The notes beneath the pieces were generated by a model. It was given only the letters and a program-made list of their open reading frames with translations, did not search any database and was not told the DNA's origin. Below, piece after piece: positions 1 through 13,311 of a stretch of DNA of 64,000 nucleotides; within the stretch, counting starts at the first letter, position 1, and every line of letters begins with the position of its first letter. A program made the position numbers and the translations under genes. The stretch is from Promethearchaeota archaeon (GTDB taxonomy: Archaea; Asgardarchaeota; Lokiarchaeia; Sigyniarchaeales; SOKP01), in contig JAEOTP010000016.1 of NCBI GenBank assembly GCA_016839765.1, positions 32,001-96,000 of the forward strand, in the 5' to 3' direction.

Positions 1-3000
1 CTTATTGGAACTCCAATCTTCACCTTCATTCTTGTAAACACTCGCTTTATTTCATATATTGATGAAGAAAGTGTGGAATATGTCAAAAGAAATGCTGCCT
101 TATTTACAAAGTCCCATCAAAATGATGACGGATTATTTTTAGAACCAGACTTAGATACTAATTTTAGAGCCATTGATTCTATTAATTTCACCCATGTGAA
201 TAATACAGATTCTCGTTTAATAAATCCCAACAATTTAAGAAATGATTTAATTAAAAAACTGGCCCCAAATTTCTTTTTCGACTACATATTTGAAAAACAA
301 AATATTAATGGAGCCTATTCAGATATAGGTGGTTTAGGGAATATGATTTCTACCTATGAAGCAATAAAAACAATTGAGGTGGCAAATAAATCTTACCTTA
401 ATCGTAAAATAATGGAAAATAAAACAATCGAAATTATTAATTATCTAAATGATTCATTGAATGGAAATGGGTTGGGATTTAAGGTTGCTCCCCTTTTGAA
501 TTATTCGGACATCATCTCAACATCTTATGCAATTGAATTAGCCCAAATTCTTTCGGGAGCTTCGATATTAAATAATAAAAATATAAGTAAATATATAAAT
601 TCTACATGGGTAATAACAGGGGGGTATGCTTTGACTAATTTCTCCTTAATTCCTACTCCTGAAACCACTTTTCATGGAATTCGAGCATATATTGGCATGA
701 ATATGACTTATGATAATGCGAGTGAATTTGCTATTTCATCCTATATTAACTCATCATATAATATGGATGGGGGTTTTAGAAATAGTCTTGGGCTGATTTC
801 TGACATTGAATCAACATATTACTGTTTAGCATCTTTAGATTTATTAAATTTACCTATAATTAATGAAAATACTACTCTTAATTTCATTTTAAATTGCAGT
901 AATCCAGACGGAGGTTTTAGTCAGCATCCAGTTTTTACAACACCATCAGACTTTAATTATGGTTGGGCTGCAATGAAAGCCTTATCAATTTTAGAAAAAT
1001 TATATAACTTTACACCCAGTATTGAAAATAGAATAAATGAAATAAAACTTAATTATTATAACTGGTTGCATGATCACCAAGCAATAAATTCTTTATTTGG
1101 TCATATCACTTTAGAATATAATTATTTTGGAGTTTTAGCATTAAGAAATTATAGTCCTGAAAATCTATATGAATGGATTAATACCACACAGACCGATAAT
1201 ATATTAGCTTATGTTTATAATTGTTATAATATAGAGGATGGTGGCTTTGGTTCAAGACCGGATTTAAATTCTACTCTTTTTTCAACGTATTGTGCCCTGA
1301 ATTTAATCAACTTTATTGAACCGTATGAGTTAAATCAATTTCACGAGCAAAATAAATCAAAAACCATACACTATTTAGTAGGTCTCCAAAATCCTGATGG
1401 AGGTTTTAGAGTCGGAAATGATATTGATTTTTTACTTTCCTTATTCGGCCCGTATTATAACTATTTCCTAAATTTAATCAATACAAATGTTTCTATGGTG
1501 GAAAGTACGTATTGGGCATTAATTTCGCTTGACATACTTCAAAGTAGTCATTTAATTGATCGAAATAACCTTTCACATTGGATAAAATCATGTCAAAATC
1601 CAGACGGAGGTTTTTCAATTTTTATTGGATTTCATAGTGATATAATCTCTACATATTTTGGTCTTGAAATATTTAACCAATTTTTTTCTTCTGAACCAAT
1701 GGCCAAGATTGCTGTAATTGAATTCTTAAAACTTGCGCAAATGTCTGATGGAAGTTTTTCAATATTACCCGCTATAGGTCAATTCATAGAATTACCATCA
1801 ACATTTTTAGTTACATATTTAGCGTCTAAGGCTCTCTACGATTACCGTTTTCAACCAGAAGATATTCAAGGAGCATTAAATTGGTATAGAGAATGCATAA
1901 GTGAAACAACTGGGGGTTTTGGAGATAACCCGGGTTTTGGAGGAGATTTAAGAAATGCCGCTTATGGAATAGTTATAATTGATGAACTAAAACATGATCA
2001 GGCTTTTGATTCTAAACCATGGAATGATTTGTTATTTTATATTCTTATTGTTGAGCTTATAGGTTTCGGATTATTTATCTTATTGAAGTTATATCAGAGG
2101 CTTTCTATTCCACAGAGGATAAAATTATTATTTGGAATAGGAGAAAAGTTAACTCCGTCATACCTGCAACAATTTCCTGCTATAAACTGCGAAAATTTTA
2201 GTGTATATGCTGGTGGGACATTGATAGTTGATTCAGTATCAATGAGTATATCGCATGGTAAAATTCTTGGCATTCTAGGAGAAAGTGGAGCTGGGAAGTC
2301 AACATTTATAAAGGGTTTACTAGGTATGAGAAAAACCACAGGATTTTGCCAAATTTATGGAATGAACATGAGTAAGAGAACATCAAAAAGAATACGACCC
2401 ATTTATGGTTATGTACCTCAAGATTTGGGAAAACTTTATCATAATTTCACCACTTTAGAAAATTTATTATATTTTGGGAATCAATATGGATTGACTGAAA
2501 AAGAGATAATAAGTAAATCTAAAAGGATACTGAGAAGCTTAGATATTGAAGACAAGATGCAAGAATTAGTAAAAAATTTATCTGGGGGCGAAAAAAGGCG
2601 AGTTAGTATTGCTATTGGTTTGACACATTCCCCAATTTTTCTTATTTTAGATGAACCAACTTCTGGATTAGATCCAATAATAAGGGAGAGTTTATGGCTA
2701 ACACTTACAAAAATTAATGAGCAATTTAAAACCACACTAATAGTTATCACACATTATCCAGAAGAATCGCGTTTTTGTAATGATGTAGCAATTTTCGGGA
2801 GAAAACGGGGCATGATTGATTTTGGAAAGCCAAAAGAACTGCTAGATCAATTACCAGGGAAAGGACGCTCAGTGGAGCTACAGTTTTATAAGCCTATTGA
2901 AAATGCCATAGAATCGCTTGAATCTATTGAAGGCATCGAAAAGGTTTTAGAAAATAAGGTTGGAACAAATTTTTCAATCTTTACCAACTTAAATGTAAAT

Positions 3001-3129
3001 GAATTATTTAATAAAATAGAAAATGTAATTGGTAACGATTCTGTTCAATTATTAAAACAAATAGATTCAAAGATGGAACAATTCTTTAGATATAAAGCTA
3101 TGGAGGTGCCTAAAATTGAAAAGCTTTAA
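1..3129 (+). CDS. Membrane-anchored prenyltransferase/squalene-oxidase-repeat (alpha/alpha barrel) ectodomain - TM - ABC ATPase fusion (5' partial)
   Basis: Frame is open from base 1 (LIGTPIFTFILVNTRF, hydrophobic), so the true start lies upstream. Many (N/Q)xDGGF...STYxAL repeats, then TM LLFYILIVELIGFGLFILL, Walker A GESGAGKS, Q-loop YVPQ, LSGGE, Walker B ILDEP, H-loop ITH. Confidence 0.85.
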   Translation, partial: LIGTPIFTFILVNTRFISYIDEESVEYVKRNAALFTKSHQNDDGLFLEPDLDTNFRAIDSINFTHVNNTDSRLINPNNLRNDLIKKLAPNFFFDYIFEKQNINGAYSDIGGLGNMISTYEAIKTIEVANKSYLNRKIMENKTIEIINYLNDSLNGNGLGFKVAPLLNYSDIISTSYAIELAQILSGASILNNKNISKYINSTWVITGGYALTNFSLIPTPETTFHGIRAYIGMNMTYDNASEFAISSYINSSYNMDGGFRNSLGLISDIESTYYCLASLDLLNLPIINENTTLNFILNCSNPDGGFSQHPVFTTPSDFNYGWAAMKALSILEKLYNFTPSIENRINEIKLNYYNWLHDHQAINSLFGHITLEYNYFGVLALRNYSPENLYEWINTTQTDNILAYVYNCYNIEDGGFGSRPDLNSTLFSTYCALNLINFIEPYELNQFHEQNKSKTIHYLVGLQNPDGGFRVGNDIDFLLSLFGPYYNYFLNLINTNVSMVESTYWALISLDILQSSHLIDRNNLSHWIKSCQNPDGGFSIFIGFHSDIISTYFGLEIFNQFFSSEPMAKIAVIEFLKLAQMSDGSFSILPAIGQFIELPSTFLVTYLASKALYDYRFQPEDIQGALNWYRECISETTGGFGDNPGFGGDLRNAAYGIVIIDELKHDQAFDSKPWNDLLFYILIVELIGFGLFILLKLYQRLSIPQRIKLLFGIGEKLTPSYLQQFPAINCENFSVYAGGTLIVDSVSMSISHGKILGILGESGAGKSTFIKGLLGMRKTTGFCQIYGMNMSKRTSKRIRPIYGYVPQDLGKLYHNFTTLENLLYFGNQYGLTEKEIISKSKRILRSLDIEDKMQELVKNLSGGEKRRVSIAIGLTHSPIFLILDEPTSGLDPIIRESLWLTLTKINEQFKTTLIVITHYPEESRFCNDVAIFGRKRGMIDFGKPKELLDQLPGKGRSVELQFYKPIENAIESLESIEGIEKVLENKVGTNFSIFTNLNVNELFNKIENVIGNDSVQLLKQIDSKMEQFFRYKAMEVPKIEKL

Positions 3130-4819
3130 AATGAGCGAACTAGAGCGCCTTAGACTAAAAACTTTAGACGCTATACGCTTTTCTAAACGATTTTGGATGA
3201 CATATAGGGAAAATACTTTTGGAATTGCCTCTATTATAAATTTAGTTTATAAAAAGTCTTTTTTTGAAGTTTTATTCTTTACAAATAAAGATGTTCTAGA
3301 GAAGGGAGTCCCTTTATTAAAAATTTATACTCCTATCGAAGAGCAAATAGATTTTGATGAAATCATAGTAGAACCTGATTTTGATGATGATGGACTTGTT
3401 AGTCCGGTGAAAATCATCGGTCGAATGAGAAAGCTTATAAGAAGAGAGTTTCAGAAACATTTAGCATTCTTGGATAAAGAAATAGAACTTCTTGATGAAA
3501 TATATGAAAATTTCCCCATAGATAATATTCCTTACCATAGAGAAATAGGCATTTATTTCCCTGATTTTGTAGTAAAGCTTAACATAAATTTTGAAAAATT
3601 TCCATCTATTCCTTCCTTTTCTTTTTCAAAAACTCTTTCAAGAATTGTAAGTGAAAGAGAATTTAACGAATCTGCTATTATCACAGACTGGAATGAATTA
3701 AACCCACCTCATATATATGAGTTAGTAGAAAAATTAACTCAAATTGTAACCGATCGTTTAAAAGTAGAACCTATAAAATTTAATTCTCAACACCTTGTGG
3801 TTGATAATTTTTCAATAGGGGGTAATATAAAAGACATCTCATTTAAGATCCATAGAGGTAAATCAATAGGGATTGTTTATGATAAAGAATTGTTCGAGAA
3901 TGCGGAGCATAGTTTGACATTATTAAAACTTTTTGAGGCTATATCAGGTGAACATCCTAATTTTTCAGGCAGAATTGAGATCTTTGGTAGATATGTTCAA
4001 TTATTACCCGCATATGATATGGAGAGAATTTTTATCTTACCCCAAGCTTATGAGTCAAAATTAACTAAAATGAAGCTTAAAAAAGCAGTTCAATATAGTA
4101 TAGATATTAAGGGTATCCTTAAAGAAAGAAAAGTTGCTTTGGATAAGGTTTTAAAAAATGCAGGATTAACTTCTAAAATGGGAGATATCGTGAATGATCT
4201 TCTTACAGAAGCACCTCTTTTACAATTTACTCGGAGGAAAGAATTTATTAAAAATGCTTTAACAGCCACGGGTTTGTGGAATAAAAAGAAAAAAAGATTT
4301 TCTCAATTAACACCTTTAGAATTTTTACTATTTTCAATTGGAAGAGCATTGCTTCAATCACCTATAATTGTAATGTTTTCAATACCTTTTGGATTACTTA
4401 ATAGAATAGACTTTGAGAAATTCAACAAATATATGAATCGCATAAAAGAAGTATTCCATATAATACTTATTTTTCATGGCCCAGAAGGAATTGCTTCAAA
4501 ATGTGATCAAATTCTAACTGTTTCTCAAAGTGTATCTAAAATAGGAACCCATGAGGACTACATCAATGCACTACCATATGCGGGTGAATATATTACAGTT
4601 GAATTCAATAATGCAGATGAGAATTTAATTAAGAAAATAAATGAATTCGAAGAAGTTAATAGAATAATTGAAGAAAGGAAAAATGAAAAATATAAGATAT
4701 ACATAAAAGAAAATCCAGATAAATTAATAATAAATTTAACAGAATTGTTTGGAGCAAATCTTTTTAGCTTCAAAATTTCAAAAGCATCAATAGGTGATTA
4801 TTTAGAATTTAACCAATAA
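3116..4819 (+). CDS. N-terminal UBC/UEV/RWD-like domain(s) fused to degenerate ABC ATPase domain
   Basis: GGAGGTG lies 7 nt before TTG 3116. ABC scaffold recognisable (DISFKIHRGKSIGIV, SGRIEIFG, FILPQ, IGRALLQSP) but Walker A, signature (LTPLE) and Walker B (MFSIP) are degenerate. N-terminal FLDKEIELL...FPSIP...WNELNPPHIYELV resembles the UBC fold. Confidence 0.6.
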   Translation: MKSFKMSELERLRLKTLDAIRFSKRFWMTYRENTFGIASIINLVYKKSFFEVLFFTNKDVLEKGVPLLKIYTPIEEQIDFDEIIVEPDFDDDGLVSPVKIIGRMRKLIRREFQKHLAFLDKEIELLDEIYENFPIDNIPYHREIGIYFPDFVVKLNINFEKFPSIPSFSFSKTLSRIVSEREFNESAIITDWNELNPPHIYELVEKLTQIVTDRLKVEPIKFNSQHLVVDNFSIGGNIKDISFKIHRGKSIGIVYDKELFENAEHSLTLLKLFEAISGEHPNFSGRIEIFGRYVQLLPAYDMERIFILPQAYESKLTKMKLKKAVQYSIDIKGILKERKVALDKVLKNAGLTSKMGDIVNDLLTEAPLLQFTRRKEFIKNALTATGLWNKKKKRFSQLTPLEFLLFSIGRALLQSPIIVMFSIPFGLLNRIDFEKFNKYMNRIKEVFHIILIFHGPEGIASKCDQILTVSQSVSKIGTHEDYINALPYAGEYITVEFNNADENLIKKINEFEEVNRIIEERKNEKYKIYIKENPDKLIINLTELFGANLFSFKISKASIGDYLEFNQ

Positions 4820-4835
4820 ATTATGAGGTAATTGT

Positions 4836-5639
4836 ATGTTTAAGAGTCTTTATATTATGGATGAAAATGGAATTGTTTTATATTCTAAAAATTTTATGAG
4901 AGAGAAGTATGATGATAATATTTTAGTAGGATTTTTCGCATCAATCGCTAATTTTAGCAGGGAAGCATTAGGAAGTGTAATTAAAAACGTTGATTTAGGA
5001 CAAAATAATAAGCTTATCTTACTTCCCATCTCAGAAGAAAATCTACTAGGAGCTGTAATTGTTAGTTCAAATGATAATAACCAGTTAATTTTAACTATTT
5101 TAAGAGATATTTTACAAGATTTTATTGATACTTTCGCTCCAGATTTCGATCCTGAAAAAATTTTTGAGGAGGAAATGGAAAAAATAATCCAAAATAATAT
5201 GAAAGGTAAAATAATGCAATCACCAAAAATTAGATTTTTACTTGCTTGGTTAATTGCGGCACCATTATCGTATCTACTTATTTTTTTAAGTATTTTCGCT
5301 ACGGATTTTCTTTATTCTATTTTTCGGCTGAACCAATATTTAAATCCTGCCCAAATTTTAACTCGCTTTACGCCATCCTTAATTTTATTATCAACAGTAA
5401 ATATAGTCATACTATTTCTGCTTCCAAACTTAATCCTTGGGTATCTTTCTCCCAATTGGAAAATCGCTACAGTAAATTCTTTTATACATTTGGCGGTTAC
5501 AATAACGTTATATTTCTTTTCTATAGAACCTAACTTTGCATACATAATTGTAGGATACCTCCCCTTAGCGTTAATTTTTTCATTGTTCTTCCTTTTCATC
5601 GGTATTCGTTATTCTTCAAAAAAATTCTTAAAAAAATAA
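4836..5639 (+). CDS. Longin-like domain protein with ~4 C-terminal TM helices
   Basis: MFKSLYIMDENGIVLYSKNF...LVGFFASIANFSRE is a typical longin beta-beta-alpha start. The C-terminal half is hydrophobic. Confidence 0.7.
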   Translation: MFKSLYIMDENGIVLYSKNFMREKYDDNILVGFFASIANFSREALGSVIKNVDLGQNNKLILLPISEENLLGAVIVSSNDNNQLILTILRDILQDFIDTFAPDFDPEKIFEEEMEKIIQNNMKGKIMQSPKIRFLLAWLIAAPLSYLLIFLSIFATDFLYSIFRLNQYLNPAQILTRFTPSLILLSTVNIVILFLLPNLILGYLSPNWKIATVNSFIHLAVTITLYFFSIEPNFAYIIVGYLPLALIFSLFFLFIGIRYSSKKFLKK

Positions 5640-5804: not shown

Positions 5805-8054
5805 TTGAGCAATAAAAATCTTAAGTTGGACTTTAATGTCGGAAATTATAAGTCTATTTTTAATACTATACCTACTCCCACTTATATCTGGAAAGTAGAT
5901 AATGATGATTTCAAATTAATTGATTGTAATAAAGCAGCAGAAATTATTACTGAAGGAAAAATTTTAGATTATTTAGGTTTAAGTTTAATAGACATATATG
6001 ATGAAGATTCTGAAGTCTCTAAGGATCTAAAAAAGTGTTTTTATGAAAAAATTAATTTTTCAAAAGAAATGCTTTATAAATATAAGAGTACTGGTAAACA
6101 GAAGGTTCTTTATACAACCTATAACTTTATACCACCGAATCTTGTTATTGTCTTTACAGAAGATATCAGTAAACAAAAAGAAGCAGAAAGTTTATTGAAA
6201 AAGACTGAAGGCGAAAAATCTATAATATTAGAAAGCATTTCAGAGCATATTGTTTATCAAGATTTAAATAATAGAATTATCTGGACAAATAAAGCCGCAG
6301 CAGATTCAGTTGGTTTAACTAGCGATCAATTAATTGGAAAAAAATGTCATAAGATTTGGAATAACCGTGATGATAAATGTCCTGGTTGTCCAGTTATTTC
6401 TGCAGTTGAAACTTGTAAACCGACTATGGCAGAAATGACTACTCCAGATGGCAGAGTATGGTTAGTTAAAGGATTTCCCGTTTTTGATGAAAAAGGAAAT
6501 GTTATAGCCGCTGTTGAAATCACTAATGAAATTACAAAGATTAAACAGGCTGAAGAAAAATTAAAAGTTTCAGAACTACAATATCGTAATACAATTGATT
6601 CAATGGGCGATGCTATACACGTCATTGATAAAGATTTAAGACTTATTCTTATTAATCCAGCAATTATAAGATGGCTTGAGGTTTTAGGTTTACAAACCGA
6701 TGTTATAGGTAAAAAACTAAATGAGGCCTTTCCTTTTTTACCTGAAAAAGTTCTTGATGAATACAAACAGGTATTAGATTCTGGAGAAACCCTTATTACG
6801 GACGAGGAGACTTTTATTAAGGGAAAAACTTACTGTACTGAATCTCGAAAGATTCCAATAATTAGTAAGGGAAAGATAAATCAAATTGTAACTATTGTCC
6901 GTGATTTTGGTGAAAGGAAAATCTCTGAGCAAAAATTAAAAGCATCAGAAAAAAAGTTTCGTCACCTTTTTGACACTTCTCCTTATGGCATAGTATTGTT
7001 AGATCTTAAAGGCGATATAATCGATTGTAACACATCTACAAATAGGTTTTTATCAAAACATACGATAGATGATTTGATTGGTAGAAATTTTAGAGAAATT
7101 TGGTTCATTCATGAAAAAAACAAAAATTTAATATCTTTTTTCGAAAACATAATTGAAAGAGTAATAAATGGTGAAAAGATTAAAAATTTGGAATTCCCTA
7201 TAAATAGATCACTTGGAGGTATAATTTGGGTAAATAGTAGTATATCATTGACAAAGTTAGGAGACGAATCATTAATACAATTCATATTAGAGGATATTTC
7301 AGATAAAAAAAAAGCTGCAACCGAGTTAAAAGAATCAGAAAAAAGATATCGTGAAGCTTTTAATCGTTCTAATTTTTATAAGGATCTTTTCGCTCATGAT
7401 ATAAATAATATTTTTCAAAATATTCAATCATCCTCTGAATTACTCTCTTTATTATTAGATGAAATGAATATTACTAAAGGAAATAATTTTGTAGATATTA
7501 TTAAAGATCAAATTATTAGAGGCTCAACTTTAATTTCAAATGTAAGGAAACTTTCAGAAATTGAAGAAATTGAATCTCCATTGAAAAAAGTTGAATTATT
7601 TGGAGTTCTTAATGAAGTTAAGAATTATATCATTAAATCCTTTCAAAATAGAAAGATTAATCTTGAAATTCTCTCTGATGAAAAGCAAATATTTGTTAAT
7701 GCAAATGAGATATTACCAGATGTATTTGAAAATATTTTAATTAATGCTATAAGATATAACCAAAACTCTTTAATAGAATTAATGATAAGGGTGTCTAAAG
7801 ACATTTCTGATGGAAAAAATTTCATTCGAATGGAATTTATCGACAACGGTATCGGCATTCCAAATGAAATGAAAGAAAAAGTTTTTCAGAGAGGTTATAA
7901 TCACAGGGGTATTATTAAGGGCTTGGGGCTGGGATTAACACTTGTAAAGAAAGTAATTGGAATTTACAATGGACAAATTTGGGTCGAAGATAAAGTTATT
8001 GGTGATTACACTCAAGGAAGTAAATTTATATTATTAATCCCAGAGGTGGAGTAA
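5805..8054 (+). CDS. Soluble multi-PAS sensor histidine kinase
   Basis: About four PAS/PAC repeats; H-box FAHDINN; N-box NILINAIRY; DNGIGI; GLGLGL. Confidence 0.93.
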   Translation: MSNKNLKLDFNVGNYKSIFNTIPTPTYIWKVDNDDFKLIDCNKAAEIITEGKILDYLGLSLIDIYDEDSEVSKDLKKCFYEKINFSKEMLYKYKSTGKQKVLYTTYNFIPPNLVIVFTEDISKQKEAESLLKKTEGEKSIILESISEHIVYQDLNNRIIWTNKAAADSVGLTSDQLIGKKCHKIWNNRDDKCPGCPVISAVETCKPTMAEMTTPDGRVWLVKGFPVFDEKGNVIAAVEITNEITKIKQAEEKLKVSELQYRNTIDSMGDAIHVIDKDLRLILINPAIIRWLEVLGLQTDVIGKKLNEAFPFLPEKVLDEYKQVLDSGETLITDEETFIKGKTYCTESRKIPIISKGKINQIVTIVRDFGERKISEQKLKASEKKFRHLFDTSPYGIVLLDLKGDIIDCNTSTNRFLSKHTIDDLIGRNFREIWFIHEKNKNLISFFENIIERVINGEKIKNLEFPINRSLGGIIWVNSSISLTKLGDESLIQFILEDISDKKKAATELKESEKRYREAFNRSNFYKDLFAHDINNIFQNIQSSSELLSLLLDEMNITKGNNFVDIIKDQIIRGSTLISNVRKLSEIEEIESPLKKVELFGVLNEVKNYIIKSFQNRKINLEILSDEKQIFVNANEILPDVFENILINAIRYNQNSLIELMIRVSKDISDGKNFIRMEFIDNGIGIPNEMKEKVFQRGYNHRGIIKGLGLGLTLVKKVIGIYNGQIWVEDKVIGDYTQGSKFILLIPEVE

Positions 8055-8436: not shown

Positions 8437-8660
8437 GCAAAAGCAAAGCGGTTATTCTATTTTGATTTTGAAAAAAAAATTATGATTTTTAAATAATTTT
8501 TTTATCTTTATAAGAAATCATCATTGCAATTATAAGAAAAAATCTTCCTTTTTTTGAAAAACCCCATAACAAATTTAAAATTCAGTACTTAATTTTCTAA
8601 AATAATTTGTTAAACTTAAAAAATCAAAAAATATGAAGATTGGTTAAAAGGTTAAGGTTT

Positions 8661-10148
8661 ATGAGCTATAAATTAGCAGATGAAAAAGATTTAGAAGCTA
8701 TGATTGGTATTGTGGGAAAAGATTATGCTACCAATAACAAGGCAATTACAGCGTCATATCTTTCCAAATCTGTAATGGGATTAGAGTCACAAATTCCTGA
8801 TATCGTCATACGCCCTAAATACGTAGAAGAGATTCGTAAAATACTACTTTACTGCTCTGCAGAAAAAATTGCAGTCTCACCGATTTCAGCCGGACTATCT
8901 GGCGGTTTTGCGTGTCCGACTATTAAGCCTGCTGGAGTTATGCTTGATTTAGGTAGAATGAATAGAATTATCGAAGTCGATACAGAAAATCGATATGTCG
9001 TAGTCGAACCGGGAGTCACGATTGGAGAGCTGTGGGCTTACATGCACAAGAATTATCCAGAGTGGGCGCCTCCCGTACCAGACGGTGCTCCACCAGCTTC
9101 TACCGTAATGGGTGATGCTATCGATCGAGGGTTTTCCCTTTACACTAGTTCCGTTGGTCCACAAGGTGATAATTTTATGTGCGGTGAGATAGTGTTTCCA
9201 AATGGAGATATTGTGCGAACCGGTTCTTGGGCTCTTCCATTTGCGAAACCGTTCTATAAATACGGACTAGGTCCAGATATCTGGTCCTTTTTAATGGGTT
9301 CACAAGGAGCTCTAGGCGTAATGACTAAAGTTGCAGTTAAAATATATCCACATCCAAAATTTAAGACTGTAGTTGTGTGGGGCATGTCCAATCCTGAGGA
9401 TATGCAGAACTTAACACTTGAAATTGGAAAACAAGAATTTGGAATTGCACACAACACCGTTATGGTTCAAGGTGGGAACTATCCATTAGTAATGACACGT
9501 TGGCCAAAAGATAAAGTTCCTCACGATTATGAATTCTACGAACAGCTAGGAATTAGTAAGTGGTGGATGAATTGGGAGTGCTGGGCACAAACTCAAGAAG
9601 AGTTAGATTATGTGGTTAATAGAATCAATAAAATGGCTGAAGATTTTAAGAAAAATAGAGCTAAAGATCCTGATGGTATAAAACCTCAGGAACTACATCC
9701 CAAACAAATCGCAAGCAGATTGAAGAAACCCAATAAGATTGCGATTCCTTATTCATTCTGGGAGGCAGGATTTTTATTCATTACGTTCTATACACCATGG
9801 AACGAATGCGCCCATTTTGCTGAAATGTACTGTAAAGCTATGGAAGATCGAGGATTTCCACCAGTAATGTGGATTGCTAGTATTGAGCGTTGTAGGCAAG
9901 CAATTTGTATGCCAATTATTTGTTTCGATAGCACAAAACAATCAGATTTCGAAAAAGTTCAAGAGATGAATAGAGAAACAACAGAATACGCGCTTAAGCA
10001 AGGGTGGTTGAATTATCGTCCAGATCCATACATCCATGCACCTCTCACTTATTCTCAAGCAGGAATGTATTGGAAATATTTGAGGATGATGAAGAAAATG
10101 TTTGATCCTAATATGATAATGCATCCCGGAAGACTTGCTCTTCCTTAA
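8661..10148 (+). CDS. FAD-binding oxidoreductase, VAO/PCMH (FAD_binding_4) family
   Basis: PDIVIRP, LDLGRMNRI, VEPGVT, GSQGALGVMTK, C-terminal KKMFDPNMIMHPG. ATG 8661 preferred over TTG 8640. Confidence 0.88.
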   Translation: MSYKLADEKDLEAMIGIVGKDYATNNKAITASYLSKSVMGLESQIPDIVIRPKYVEEIRKILLYCSAEKIAVSPISAGLSGGFACPTIKPAGVMLDLGRMNRIIEVDTENRYVVVEPGVTIGELWAYMHKNYPEWAPPVPDGAPPASTVMGDAIDRGFSLYTSSVGPQGDNFMCGEIVFPNGDIVRTGSWALPFAKPFYKYGLGPDIWSFLMGSQGALGVMTKVAVKIYPHPKFKTVVVWGMSNPEDMQNLTLEIGKQEFGIAHNTVMVQGGNYPLVMTRWPKDKVPHDYEFYEQLGISKWWMNWECWAQTQEELDYVVNRINKMAEDFKKNRAKDPDGIKPQELHPKQIASRLKKPNKIAIPYSFWEAGFLFITFYTPWNECAHFAEMYCKAMEDRGFPPVMWIASIERCRQAICMPIICFDSTKQSDFEKVQEMNRETTEYALKQGWLNYRPDPYIHAPLTYSQAGMYWKYLRMMKKMFDPNMIMHPGRLALP

Positions 10149-10170
10149 TTGAGTAAGGAGGTAAAAAAAA

Positions 10171-11595
10171 ATGGCTAAAACTGGAATGGAAAGATTAAAA
10201 GAATTAGAGAAGGAAATATATAAGTGTATTCACTGTAAAGCATGTAGATTTGCTTATTCGGGAGAGCCCAGTAGAGAAGGGATAGGGGAATATACAGGTA
10301 AACAGGGTACAGTTCTTTATGAAGGAATGGTTGACGCATGTCCAGCTGGAATAGAATACGGTTGGGAAGCGTTTTGGAACGCCGGTAAAATTTGGATTGC
10401 TCGTTCAATTTTAAGCGGAGATTTAGATTTTTCTGATGAAGTAAGGGATGTTATAATGCCTTGTATTACTTGTGGACAATGCAGTGCTCAATGTGATAAT
10501 AAAATTCCAACTGTTGATATTATCGAATCATTACGAGCAGCATGTAATGAAGCGGGTATTCCAATGATAGAAAAGCATGAATTAGTGGATAGGCTTGTAA
10601 AGGAACTCAATAATCCTTACGGTGGAAAAGCTGCAGAACGCTTTAAATGGGCAAAAGATGCCGGATTAGAGAAATTTGTTGATAATAAAGAAGCAAAAAT
10701 TGGCTACTATGTAGGTTGTACTGCATCATACCGTCAAGTGGAAGTCGCAATAGCAACTGCGAAACTTTTTGAAATGTTGGGCATCAACTTTACTTTAGTT
10801 GGTGATGAGGTATGTTGTGGAAGTCCTTTCTTTAGAATAGGAGCTGTTGACACTGCACAAGAACTAATGAACAAAAATCTCGAGGCTTTTAAAGGTTTAG
10901 AAATGGTTTACTTCAGTTGTGCTGGATGTTATAGGACAATCACTTTAGATTATCCAAAATGGATGCCTGAGGGTTCCAAACTACCTTTCAAAACACAACA
11001 CGCATTTGAATTAGTCACTCGATTAATCCAACAAGAAAAAATCAAATTCAAGCCAAATAAAGAGTTAAAAGGAAAGATAGTTACCTATCACGACCCGTGC
11101 CATACTGGTCGTCATTTCGGAGTTGATTTTGAGCAAGAACTTATCAAACAAAGCAAGAATTTAATGTTCGATATGAGAAAAATCAAAGAGAAAATTGATA
11201 AATGGTTTGAAATTCCAAGAATTATTCTTAGAAAGCTTGAAGAGGATGTTGGAATCGAATTTAGAGAAATGTATCGTATAAAACTGAATAGTATGTGCTG
11301 TGGGGCAGGTGGTGGTGTCCGTGCTGGATATCCTGATTTCTCAATACGCACTGCTAGTTTACGATGTGATGAAGCAAATGCAGTAGAAGCAGATATTTTG
11401 ACAACCGAATGTCCTTTTTGCTGGAGGAATCTAACGGATGCTAATGAACTATACAATCATGGCATGAAAGTTATGGGTGTTTTACAAATGATTACTGAAT
11501 ATAATTTATTAGAAATCTTAGATAATCCGACTGAAAAAGATTTCTTGACCTCCTCTATAAGGGAACTTGAAGCAGATTCCGAAAAGAAGAAATAA
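10171..11595 (+). CDS. Fe-S protein with two CCG domains (HdrD/GlcF-like)
   Basis: CIHCKAC...CP and CITCGQCSAQC ferredoxin motifs; VCCG, SCAGC, YHDPCH, MCCG, ECPFC; AGGAGG RBS. Confidence 0.9.
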   Translation: MAKTGMERLKELEKEIYKCIHCKACRFAYSGEPSREGIGEYTGKQGTVLYEGMVDACPAGIEYGWEAFWNAGKIWIARSILSGDLDFSDEVRDVIMPCITCGQCSAQCDNKIPTVDIIESLRAACNEAGIPMIEKHELVDRLVKELNNPYGGKAAERFKWAKDAGLEKFVDNKEAKIGYYVGCTASYRQVEVAIATAKLFEMLGINFTLVGDEVCCGSPFFRIGAVDTAQELMNKNLEAFKGLEMVYFSCAGCYRTITLDYPKWMPEGSKLPFKTQHAFELVTRLIQQEKIKFKPNKELKGKIVTYHDPCHTGRHFGVDFEQELIKQSKNLMFDMRKIKEKIDKWFEIPRIILRKLEEDVGIEFREMYRIKLNSMCCGAGGGVRAGYPDFSIRTASLRCDEANAVEADILTTECPFCWRNLTDANELYNHGMKVMGVLQMITEYNLLEILDNPTEKDFLTSSIRELEADSEKKK

Positions 11596-11802: not shown

Positions 11803-13311
11803 ATGAAAAAGAAAAAAGCAATTGCGATTATTGCTGCTTTAGTTATTGTAGCGGGAGTAACTACTACGTTACTGCTGGTATTTCTATTTCCCAGTCCAGG
11901 AGTATATACAGGTCAAAGGAAAGCATTAATCTGCTGTAGTGCAAATGATTTTTTTGGTTCAGAACCTGAGGAACCATTTAATGATGGACATGATTCTAAT
12001 TTAAATAACATTATTAAAGATGAAGGGAATTGGTCATTTACTAATATAGAAAATTGTTTAGGACAACATACTATGCTTGAAGCTTATGAAGGGCCTCTAA
12101 ATGGCAGTTTGCTTATGAAAGCTATTATAGATGGACCATTCTCAGGGATTTTTTCTCTTAATTGGACACAATCTGGTTATACTCTTTATGAATATGCTTA
12201 TTATAATATTTCAGCCATGATTAAAATTATAGATACAGGAGGATTAATAGGTAAGGGGGCTCGAATTGGATTACAATGGCTGGATTCCGATGGAGATGTA
12301 ACTAGAACTGACTGGTCAAATTATATTAATAATACAAATTCAGAATGGGCATTTTTAAATTCTACAGGAGTTTGCAATAATGAAACAGGAAAAGAAATAA
12401 CGGAATTAAAACTTGTGTTATGTGTAAATTTCACATTATCTATTGCTTTAACAGATTATATTTTCTTTGATTACATCAAAATAGATAAGTGGGTTTTAGT
12501 AGATTTAGACAATCCTACTGATCCTGGTACTCCTCCTCCGCCTCCAGGCATAAATTCAGATGGATTCCCTGCTCAGGCATTACAAGTATATTGGATATTG
12601 AAAAATCATGGTTATACAGATGAAAATATCTTTTTGATGTTATATTATAAGGATGATGCAGATGGAATTATTGATATTAAGTTAGGTGGTAAACCAGATG
12701 ATTTAGTTGGTGCAGTTATTGATTTAGCTAATAACAGTGTAAATGCTACAAGTTTCAAACAAGAGTTAAATGTTTCTTATGCAGGTTCTTTTGCTTCCAC
12801 CATACAACCACAAGATTATCTAATTATATATATGTGTGATCATGGTTCAAATAAAATACCTGGTCAAGCTCCCAATGCTACATTCCATTTTGAAGCGGAT
12901 AATAGTTTTATTACAGAATTAGAATTTTATAATTTAGTTAAGCAAATAAATTGTCAGAGAATAATGATAAATGTAGATTGCTGTTTTAGTGGTAATTTTC
13001 TAAATCAAAATATTGTTGGTCAGAGCTGGTATGATATTGAAAATTGTATCATGGTTAGCGCTTCTTCGAATTTACTTGCTTGGTATTATATAAATAATAA
13101 AAATCTTGATGGATTTGCAGGTTCCTGGTTCTTTCATATGTTTTGGGATGCGTTAAATCAGTCTGCGACTATTTACGATGCTTTTAATCATGCCAATATC
13201 TGGCCTCCAGCTGCTCGTGGAATGCCATTATTTTTGATTCAGAATCCAATGTGGGATGATAATATGGGTATTAATAAAACATTAAGCTTCGATAGCGATC
13301 CTCCATTATAG
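11803..13311 (+). CDS. Membrane-anchored clan CD (caspase/legumain-like) cysteine peptidase with inserted beta-sandwich domain
   Basis: N-terminal KKKK plus hydrophobic anchor; catalytic dyad motifs YLIIYMCDHG and INVDCCFSG; late QNP motif. Confidence 0.75.
   Translation: MKKKKAIAIIAALVIVAGVTTTLLLVFLFPSPGVYTGQRKALICCSANDFFGSEPEEPFNDGHDSNLNNIIKDEGNWSFTNIENCLGQHTMLEAYEGPLNGSLLMKAIIDGPFSGIFSLNWTQSGYTLYEYAYYNISAMIKIIDTGGLIGKGARIGLQWLDSDGDVTRTDWSNYINNTNSEWAFLNSTGVCNNETGKEITELKLVLCVNFTLSIALTDYIFFDYIKIDKWVLVDLDNPTDPGTPPPPPGINSDGFPAQALQVYWILKNHGYTDENIFLMLYYKDDADGIIDIKLGGKPDDLVGAVIDLANNSVNATSFKQELNVSYAGSFASTIQPQDYLIIYMCDHGSNKIPGQAPNATFHFEADNSFITELEFYNLVKQINCQRIMINVDCCFSGNFLNQNIVGQSWYDIENCIMVSASSNLLAWYYINNKNLDGFAGSWFFHMFWDALNQSATIYDAFNHANIWPPAARGMPLFLIQNPMWDDNMGINKTLSFDSDPPL

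Follow-up and report, generated by a model that had tools for sequence, protein, structure and literature searches.

Why would the motor subunit of an ATP-binding cassette (ABC) transporter cross the membrane twice in order to display a domain of 650 amino acids (aa) outside the cell? The question is raised by a gene at the very start of a 64,000-nucleotide stretch of DNA from a Promethearchaeota archaeon (assembly GCA_016839765.1, contig JAEOTP010000016.1, here C67, positions 32001-96000), which we refer to as the window. This gene encodes an array of prenyltransferase-like repeats, predicted to be extracellular, in one polypeptide with an intact ABC ATPase. The ATPase subunits of ABC transporters are normally soluble, or else fused to a full permease domain, and we have not found a design of the present kind described. 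Such a layout means either that the cargo has an external acceptor built into the pump or that ATP hydrolysis is coupled mechanically and directly to the cell surface; the answer that we tentatively favour is the first. Identifying the cargo could inform how Asgard archaea handle surface lipids or envelope components.

The reading frame at window 1-3129 (+) is open to the first base, as a sequence-only reading of this DNA had claimed, and the start of the window truncates the gene. Once the upstream piece L002 (C67:22001-40000) is included, the full gene is found at L002:9938-13129, that is window -62 to 3129, with 62 nt lying upstream of the window. It starts with a TTG codon, has a GAGGTG Shine-Dalgarno sequence 4 nt upstream and encodes a product of 1063 aa. 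The protein begins with a signal anchor; then come 12 DGGF-type repeats spanning about 650 aa, a second transmembrane (TM) helix and the ABC ATPase. The ectodomain alone matches the Pfam family Prenyltrans (PF00432, E 3e-38, above the cut-off) in 4 stretches and contains 12 repeat cores of the type Q-x-x-D-G-G-F, spaced by roughly 48-60 aa; both repeat motifs that had been quoted earlier are present in the translation. The C-terminal part matches ABC_tran (PF00005, E 2e-25), and its Walker A, Q-loop, LSGG signature, Walker B with catalytic Glu and H-loop are all in place, so the ATPase is intact, as had been supposed.

Is such a protein real? The sequence-only reading had named a chimera of the assembly as one of the circumstances that would overturn it. 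We find more than 120 clusters of full-length homologues in the NCBI, JGI, ENA and Logan assemblies, with 51-92% identity, lengths of about 1000-1090 aa and both Pfam domains, and all of the named ones are Asgard archaea. When the ectodomain alone served as query in an exhaustive search, further fusions of equal architecture came up at 31-38% identity. Among 201 genomes of the phylum, a single uninterrupted frame of 1024-1087 aa is present in 19 of 40 genomes of the same family and in 1 of 160 elsewhere, and the species genomes of GTDB hold 56 fusion loci, all in metagenome-assembled genomes of Asgard archaea and none in a named isolate. No convincing case of a split ectodomain and nucleotide-binding domain (NBD) was found, the short matches being fragments at contig ends. 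The fusion recurs across independent assemblies and is a genuine conserved gene, not a chimera. Public annotation of the homologues is confined to automatic names, and we found no description of the fusion in the full-text literature, a search that left most subscription journals outside.

Which side of the membrane do the repeats face? The protein has only two membrane-grade hydrophobic segments, residues 15-33 (TM1) and 698-716 (TM2), which are the hydrophobic N-terminus and the TM helix that had been placed on either side of the repeats. The 15 residues before TM1 include 6 K/R and no D/E, and those after it 1 K/R and 4 D/E; TM2 is preceded by 2 K/R and 4 D/E and followed by 4 K/R and no D/E. 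Across 57 homologues with a complete N-terminus the mean numbers of K/R before and after the helix are 3.6 and 1.1 for TM1, and 1.6 and 4.4 for TM2. An ABC nucleotide-binding domain is necessarily cytoplasmic. This requirement and the positive-inside bias at both helices together put the toroid region outside the cell and the N-terminus inside.

The same location had been suggested earlier on other grounds, namely the presence of about 20 N-x-S/T sequons. The count itself holds: there are 21 in the ectodomain, compared with 9.4 +/- 2.7 in shuffles that preserve composition (3 of 2000 reach 21). Across the 57 homologues the density of sequons is 2.2 per 100 aa outside and 1.0 inside, with the ectodomain at twice the level of the cytoplasmic part in 56 of them. 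However, the sequons of the cytoplasmic part likewise exceed expectation (6 versus 2.2), and three conserved ones sit in conserved segments of the NBD, e.g. the NLSGG signature. Because the ratio of observed to expected sequons is no higher outside (1.6) than inside (2.0) in the homologues, the excess outside is largely a product of N, S and T composition. Sequons are therefore a weak sign of external location once composition is controlled, and we dropped their density as evidence of it.

We modelled residues 38-687 with AlphaFold2 (AF2) on an alignment of 45 homologues. The model is all-helical, with about 32 helices (predicted local distance difference test, pLDDT, 91.7; predicted template modelling score, pTM, 0.91), and shows two alpha/alpha toroids, which agrees with the two barrels that had been proposed. 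We compared it with 48,161 PDB representatives in a search independent of Foldseek, and Foldseek matches were realigned separately (VIA-align). The top fold matches are the beta subunits of protein prenyltransferases, with Z 26-30 and a root-mean-square deviation (rmsd) of 2.5-2.9 over about 285 residues; for RabGGTase beta, one of the realigned Foldseek matches, Z is 29.8 (rmsd 2.5, 283 residues), and for GGTase-I (1n4p_B) it is 27.9 (rmsd 2.9, 285 residues). Squalene cyclases rank second at Z 17.6-20.2, led by 8paj_A (Z 20.2). Squalene-hopene cyclase (SHC; 1gsz_A, Z 19.3) aligns collinearly over both toroids, with 466 residues at an rmsd of 7.7, and oxidosqualene cyclase (OSC; 1w6k_A, Z 17.6) aligns 476 residues across both domains. 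All other toroid folds stay at or below Z 18.5, those of glycosidases (15-18), epimerases and thioester domains being interleaved with 1w6k_A in the range 15-18.5. The best sequence matches of the ectodomain are again prenyltransferase beta subunits (E 2e-17 to 4e-21).

With the protein prenyltransferase beta subunits (RabGGTase/GGTase-II, GGTase-III, GGTase-I and FTase) the ectodomain has in common the alpha/alpha toroid made of PFTB-type repeats. Unlike these enzymes, which are cytosolic and have one toroid, it is predicted to have two, to be extracellular and tethered to the membrane, to be joined to an ABC ATPase and to lack the zinc ligands. It aligns collinearly with the class II cyclases SHC and OSC and may share their two-toroid architecture. 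Those cyclases are monotopic and cytoplasmic, whereas the ectodomain would be bitopic and external, and the rmsd of 7.7-8.1 A over both domains indicates that the geometry between the toroids differs. In SHC the first helix belongs to the C-terminal toroid, and the alignment ranges suggest that the same is true here. Matches with a single toroid span the model from residues 1-11 to residues 645-650, although only about 270-320 residues are aligned (in 49 of 50 and in 50 of 50 of the matches listed), so the N-terminal helix of the ectodomain probably belongs to the C-terminal toroid, in an inserted-barrel arrangement like that of SHC. If this is right, both membrane tethers exit from toroid 2, which would therefore lie on the membrane with toroid 1 distal to it.

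Does the ectodomain keep any of the chemistry of this fold? The zinc motif and DxDD had already been reported as missing from this one protein, and the wider comparison bears this out. The motifs D-x-C, DxDD(TA), VxDCTA, NSE/DTE, strict QW and CGEQ are absent both from the fusion protein and from 27 diverse homologues (31-92% identity); DDxxD is absent from the fusion protein and has one chance occurrence among the 27. In place of the QW motif we found only a generic repeat core, Q-x(2-5)-G-x-aromatic. No prenyltransferase alpha subunit (PPTA, PF01239) exceeds the Pfam cut-off in the genome, which is 96% complete, and its two weak PF01239 matches (23 bits) are akin to those in control archaea. 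Because the catalytic motifs are absent and no alpha subunit passes the cut-off, none of the known chemistries of the fold is retained in the ectodomain. The prenyltransferase fold would thus clearly have been put to another use here, as a module outside the cell without enzymatic function.

Mapping of the catalytic site by hidden Markov model alignment was abandoned, as the alignments to RabGGTase beta slip between repeats; the residues of toroid 2 were mapped by a manual collinear alignment. The zinc ligands of RabGGT beta we take to be D238, C240 and H290. At these positions a profile alignment places three residues of toroid 1, namely Asp, one that varies (Glu in this protein) and Asp, and the manual alignment places Ser/Thr, Phe/Leu and the invariant N673 of toroid 2, such that N673 would occupy the position of the zinc-binding His of prenyltransferase beta.

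Conservation is uneven along the ectodomain. In the 27 homologues the mean identity to the query is 0.44 for toroid 1 and 0.55 for residues 521-687, the best-conserved part. The invariant residues cluster in the last repeats, where the polar residues Q553, D556, S567, Y573, Q601, D663, D670 and N673 are accompanied by a GGF motif and by G660, G662, F667 and G668. W695, just before TM2, is kept in 26 of the 27 homologues and E706, in the middle of TM2, in 22. This concentration suggests that the mouth of the membrane-proximal toroid and TM2 are under selection.

Two other identities of the ectodomain were considered and rejected. A thioester domain (TED) as in alpha2-macroglobulin and complement lacks its CGEQ motif in 27 of 27 homologues, and its fold reaches a Z of only about 16. 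A link with Ribophorin II (PF05817) fails as well, with no match of the ectodomain even at E 10. Unfused double-toroid proteins of other archaea, one of them named Woesearchaeota, match PF05817.

What sort of engine does this domain ride on? ABCA and ABCH proteins are type V lipid exporters of eukaryotes, and it is among them that the closest solved relatives of the fusion NBD are found by sequence: ABCA3 (8e-54), ABCA4, ABCA1 and ABCA7 (to 4e-39), then insect ABCH, with the next solved family at 1e-34. The drrA model TIGR01188 matches at E 8e-45, under its equivalog cut-off, which is informative at the family level only, and the NCBIfam model GldA matches the NBD together with its C-terminal domain over nearly the full model length. 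PermA, one of two permeases encoded upstream of the fusion, has TcABCH-9C as its only solved relatives (E 1e-14, nearly full length). TcABCH-9C exports ceramide and lipophilic insecticides (PMC12578276). The sequence-only reading had said that the layout loosely recalls ABCA; the likeness is closer than that, with the NBD nearest to ABCA3/4/1/7 and PermA nearest to ABCH-9C. The fusion NBD shares both sequence kinship and a C-terminal domain of regulatory type with the ABCA/ABCH proteins, and their layout of TM1, a large ectodomain and further TM helices is that of the separate permeases of the cassette. There are also clear differences. The cassette encodes several subunits, with the 6-TM domains as separate proteins, whereas the known exporters are single chains. 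Its toroid ectodomain sits on a two-TM ATPase subunit, whereas the ABCA ectodomain lies inside a 6-TM permease domain, and the toroid fold is not that of the ABCA ectodomains.

The fusion gene does not stand alone. Directly upstream are genes for two different ABC2_membrane_3 permeases (PermA and PermB; 384 and 415 aa, E 3e-27 each) and for a plain ATPase of 329 aa (NBD1) in which all catalytic motifs are intact. Directly downstream are genes for a pseudo-ATPase of 567 aa and then a membrane protein of 267 aa. The order PermA-PermB-NBD1-fusion-567 aa-267 aa is retained in five further genomes of the family, at 42-77% identity, and a distant genome with the fusion has the first four genes and a shorter fifth. 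At the 56 loci the neighbours include the 567-aa protein in 52 cases, the plain ATPase in 49 and the 267-aa protein in 49; the count of permeases is limited by contig ends. Complete genomes without the fusion are also without the pseudo-ATPase, so the cassette comes and goes as a whole, and these archaea can do without it. In two genomes there is an insert of 1.7-2 kb between the fusion and pseudo-ATPase genes (L016:12186-13568 (-) and the equivalent gap in L020); the one in L016 holds two opposite-strand genes, for a multi-TM protein of 239 aa and a soluble protein of 152 aa.

In the 567-aa protein the Walker A, Q-loop, signature and Walker B motifs are all destroyed. Its AF2 model (pLDDT 86) shows an NBD fold with a C-terminal domain of regulatory type, and its best Foldseek matches, all to the NBD part, are TM_1403, MetN, MlaF, MacB, NosF and ABCA. 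In the model the first 215 aa form two units, each of a helix, a meander of 3-4 strands and further helices (pLDDT ~85-92). This region has no match in Pfam, Foldseek or the ESM Atlas, and is compatible with a UBC/RWD-like fold but does not show one. The family has 192 matches, and all of the named ones are Asgard archaea. The 267-aa protein has a soluble N-terminal domain of 125 aa and a hydrophobic C-terminal half. Pfam gives only sub-threshold hints of a longin domain (Intu_longin_1, E 0.076; Sybindin, E 0.1), and its ESM Atlas matches are unnamed clusters only, with Promethearchaeota as the commonest taxon.

A protein of 175 aa, encoded at L002:5802-6329 (+), 3.7-4.2 kb before the start of the window, may be a seventh component. 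It has no Pfam match, its N-terminus (CPICK...C-x-HHFQVFVDKN) is Zn-ribbon-like, and a 47%-identical homologue adjoins the cassette in 28 of the 56 loci, on either side. A histidine kinase of 749 aa follows directly after the cassette (window 5805-8054 (+)); its homologue in L025, of 731 aa, has several PAS domains and HATPase_c. Since the same neighbour is present in only 12 of the 56 loci, the kinase is probably a matter of local synteny and not a part of the system.

How might these parts work together? Our preferred explanation, which we hold tentatively and at rather less than an even chance, is an exporter of type V (ABC-2; ABCA/ABCH-like) in Loki-type Asgard archaea, in which the fusion is one of the two active ATPases and the toroids are a non-catalytic module for hydrophobic cargo at the exit. 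We favour it because of the lipid-binding ancestry of the fold, the kinship of the engine with ABCA and ABCH, and the conservation at the membrane-proximal mouth. A PermA/PermB heterodimer would be driven by a heterodimer of NBD1 and the fusion NBD, making a heterotetramer, and TM1 and TM2 of the fusion would pack against the helices of the permeases. TM2 may well be more than a lipid-exposed tether, since it has a conserved Glu (E706) in mid-membrane. Toroid 2, next to the membrane, with a tether at either end and the residues that are invariant in the family, would sit above the permease ectodomains and there bind or hand off, without catalysis, a hydrophobic cargo that the pump expels from the membrane; an isoprenoid-based lipid is the most plausible candidate. 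Possible parallels are the ectodomains of ABCA1, and LptC/LptA and LolA of the bacterial lipid exporters. The pseudo-ATPase, the 267-aa membrane protein and the Zn-ribbon-like protein would probably have regulatory or scaffolding roles.

The genome has only one other Prenyltrans gene, at L021:1192-2298 (+) on contig C82. Its 368-aa product starts with a signal peptide and ends in a TM anchor, with one N-x-S/T-rich toroid between them, so the fold would serve more than once as an external module in this genome. The gene upstream of it (L021:1-1035) has an actin-like look, with an insert that carries four CxxC pairs.

Several observations weigh against an exporter of this kind. It is not obvious why an archaeon bounded by one membrane should need a lipid acceptor on its outside. 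The kinship of the plain NBD1 is less specific (ABCA3 6e-40, DppD 6e-37), and prokaryotic ABC-2 pumps have very diverse cargos and ATPases that are generally ABCA-NBD-like. In the hand alignment, the repeat that matches the diphosphate-binding repeat of the prenyltransferases has no basic residue, so a prenyl diphosphate at the prenyltransferase site is unlikely. Finally, roughly half of the genomes in the cassette's own family lack it, some of these being 100% complete.

A bolder version of the exporter, which we consider improbable, sees in the cassette a prokaryotic analogue or forerunner of the eukaryotic ABCA/ABCH lipid exporters that brings along an external acceptor for isoprenoid lipids. 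It would extract archaeal lipids from the membrane and deliver them beyond it, the recipients being protrusions, vesicles, surface proteins or syntrophic partners, and the pump would be regulated by the dead ATPase and by a membrane protein with a possibly longin-like domain. If true, an ATPase that spans the membrane and bears the acceptor would be an ABC subunit of a new type, and it would offer a way into the lipid traffic of the closest lineage to eukaryotes.

Could the ATPase do its work without any transport? ATP hydrolysis by the fused NBD would then move the toroids through TM2 and perform work on a surface protein, a glycan or the S-layer. The models for such mechanotransmission are FtsEX, LolCDE/MacB and NosDFY, and GldAFG with its bitopic GldG possibly behaves likewise. 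We regard this as unlikely, although it is the strongest of the rivals. The NBD, TM2 and toroids are linked covalently, the linker is short (~14 aa) and W695 and E706 are conserved; the GldA model matches over nearly its whole length, and the fold search with the pseudo-ATPase gave NosF as one of its matches. GldAFG, whose accessory part is PF09822, has in common with the cassette an ABC-2 engine and an accessory part of the form TM-large external domain-TM. GldG is bitopic with this same topology. Unlike in GldAFG, the accessory part here belongs to the ATPase polypeptide, and it consists of two toroids instead of a GldG/GIFT domain.

The relatives of the fusion NBD add a further point in favour of mechanical work. 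The nearest unfused ones are ATPases of 540-577 aa with 40-44% identity, found in many Asgard lineages, and the three that we read have a soluble N-terminal extension without a hydrophobic segment. The closest of them adjoin, in sister cassettes, a secreted subtilase of 1620 aa with a GldG-like domain. Such a sister ABC-2 cassette is found in two genomes of genus g4, in the same family, that have no toroid cassette, at L090:3172-12083 (G144) and L091:5281-14193 (G040), in the order two ABC-2 permeases, an ATPase of ~555-565 aa and a protein of ~1620 aa. In G144, the copy to which the Pfam assignment refers, the ~1620-aa protein begins with a hydrophobic leader and contains a subtilase domain (Peptidase_S8) and a GldG-like ABC_transp_aux/DUF4350 region. 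An ATPase homologous to that of the sister cassettes (P0428, 44-51% identical) has a soluble N-terminal extension. As the sister cassettes carry this ~1620-aa protein beside an ABC-2 engine, the pairing of such engines with large external proteins seems to recur in this archaeal family, and in the toroid cassette the external part appears to have become fused to the motor. On the other side, substrate export is the documented activity of the ABCA/ABCH type, to which both permeases and NBDs belong; a single TM helix is a weak lever, and no target is evident within the cassette.

Could the toroids be the input of a device rather than its output? In such a sensing or ligand-gated device they would bind an external cue and switch the ATPase through TM2, and the accessory proteins would relay its state inward. 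The layout of an ectodomain, one TM helix and a cytoplasmic nucleotide-binding module does resemble a receptor. Among the conserved members of the cassette is a catalytically dead paralogue of the NBD that bears an additional N-terminal domain, and the 267-aa protein has its weak sub-threshold longin-family matches (E 0.08-0.1). A pure sensor would have no use for two full permeases and a second active ATPase, though. The cassette also holds no output domain, such as a kinase or a DNA-binding domain, the PAS kinase being a neighbour at so few of the loci, and we judge this possibility distinctly improbable.

Very improbable, in our view, is an extracellular enzyme with a non-canonical site, e.g. 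an isoprenoid or glycan transferase, a cyclase or a hydrolase that acts on an exported substrate. Many (alpha/alpha)6 toroids are enzymes, and the invariant polar residues of the last repeats map, by the manual collinear alignment, to the catalytic mouth of the prenyltransferases. Yet most of the invariant residues are generic repeat positions (GGF, helix-capping Asp), the known active-site motifs are missing throughout the homologues apart from the one chance DDxxD, and the glycosidase toroids score far below the prenyltransferases. An artefact of assembly or gene calling that joined an unrelated surface protein to an ATPase is practically refuted by the homologue clusters from independent assemblies, the divergent fusions, the 56 loci and the uninterrupted frames in 20 other genomes.

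The coordinates of the fusion and of its two downstream partners are collected in Table 1.

Table 1. Parts of the fusion gene and the two genes downstream of it, in window coordinates; assignments of fold and packing are predictions.
Feature	Position	Strand	Basis
TM1 end (N-terminal signal anchor, residues 15-33)	1..34	+	Hydrophobicity; K/R 6 before, 1 after
Ectodomain, residues 38-687, 12 repeats, two predicted alpha/alpha toroids	49..1998	+	PF00432; AF2; VIA-align to RabGGTase beta
First ectodomain helix, probably packs into the C-terminal toroid	64..111	+	Alignment ranges only
Toroid 1, repeats 1-6, probably distal, less conserved	127..1008	+	Cores at residues 65, 125, 180, 228, 278, 325
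Toroid 2, repeats 7-12, probably membrane-proximal	1015..1998	+	Repeat cores and conservation
Last repeat, TGGFGDNPGFGGDLRN	1909..1956	+	Family-invariant G660, G662, D663, F667, G668, D670, N673
TM2, residues 698-716, mid-helix E706, preceded by W695	2029..2085	+	Hydrophobicity; conservation
Cytoplasmic ABC ATPase, DrrA/NodI/ABCA type, with C-terminal domain of regulatory type	2173..3129	+	Pfam; motifs; sequence matches to solved relatives
567-aa pseudo-ATPase	3116..4819	+	NBD fold by AF2; motifs destroyed; 52/56 loci
267-aa membrane protein	4836..5639	+	Soluble N-terminal domain, hydrophobic C-terminal half; 49/56 loci

Further along the window, positions 8640-11595 (+) have a G+C content of 0.38-0.41, compared with about 0.29 in the surroundings. 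This segment has no Rfam match and encodes a FAD_binding_4 protein and a CCG/4Fe-4S protein, a pair that is GlcD/GlcF-like. A Peptidase_C13 (legumain-like) protein follows at window 11803-13311.

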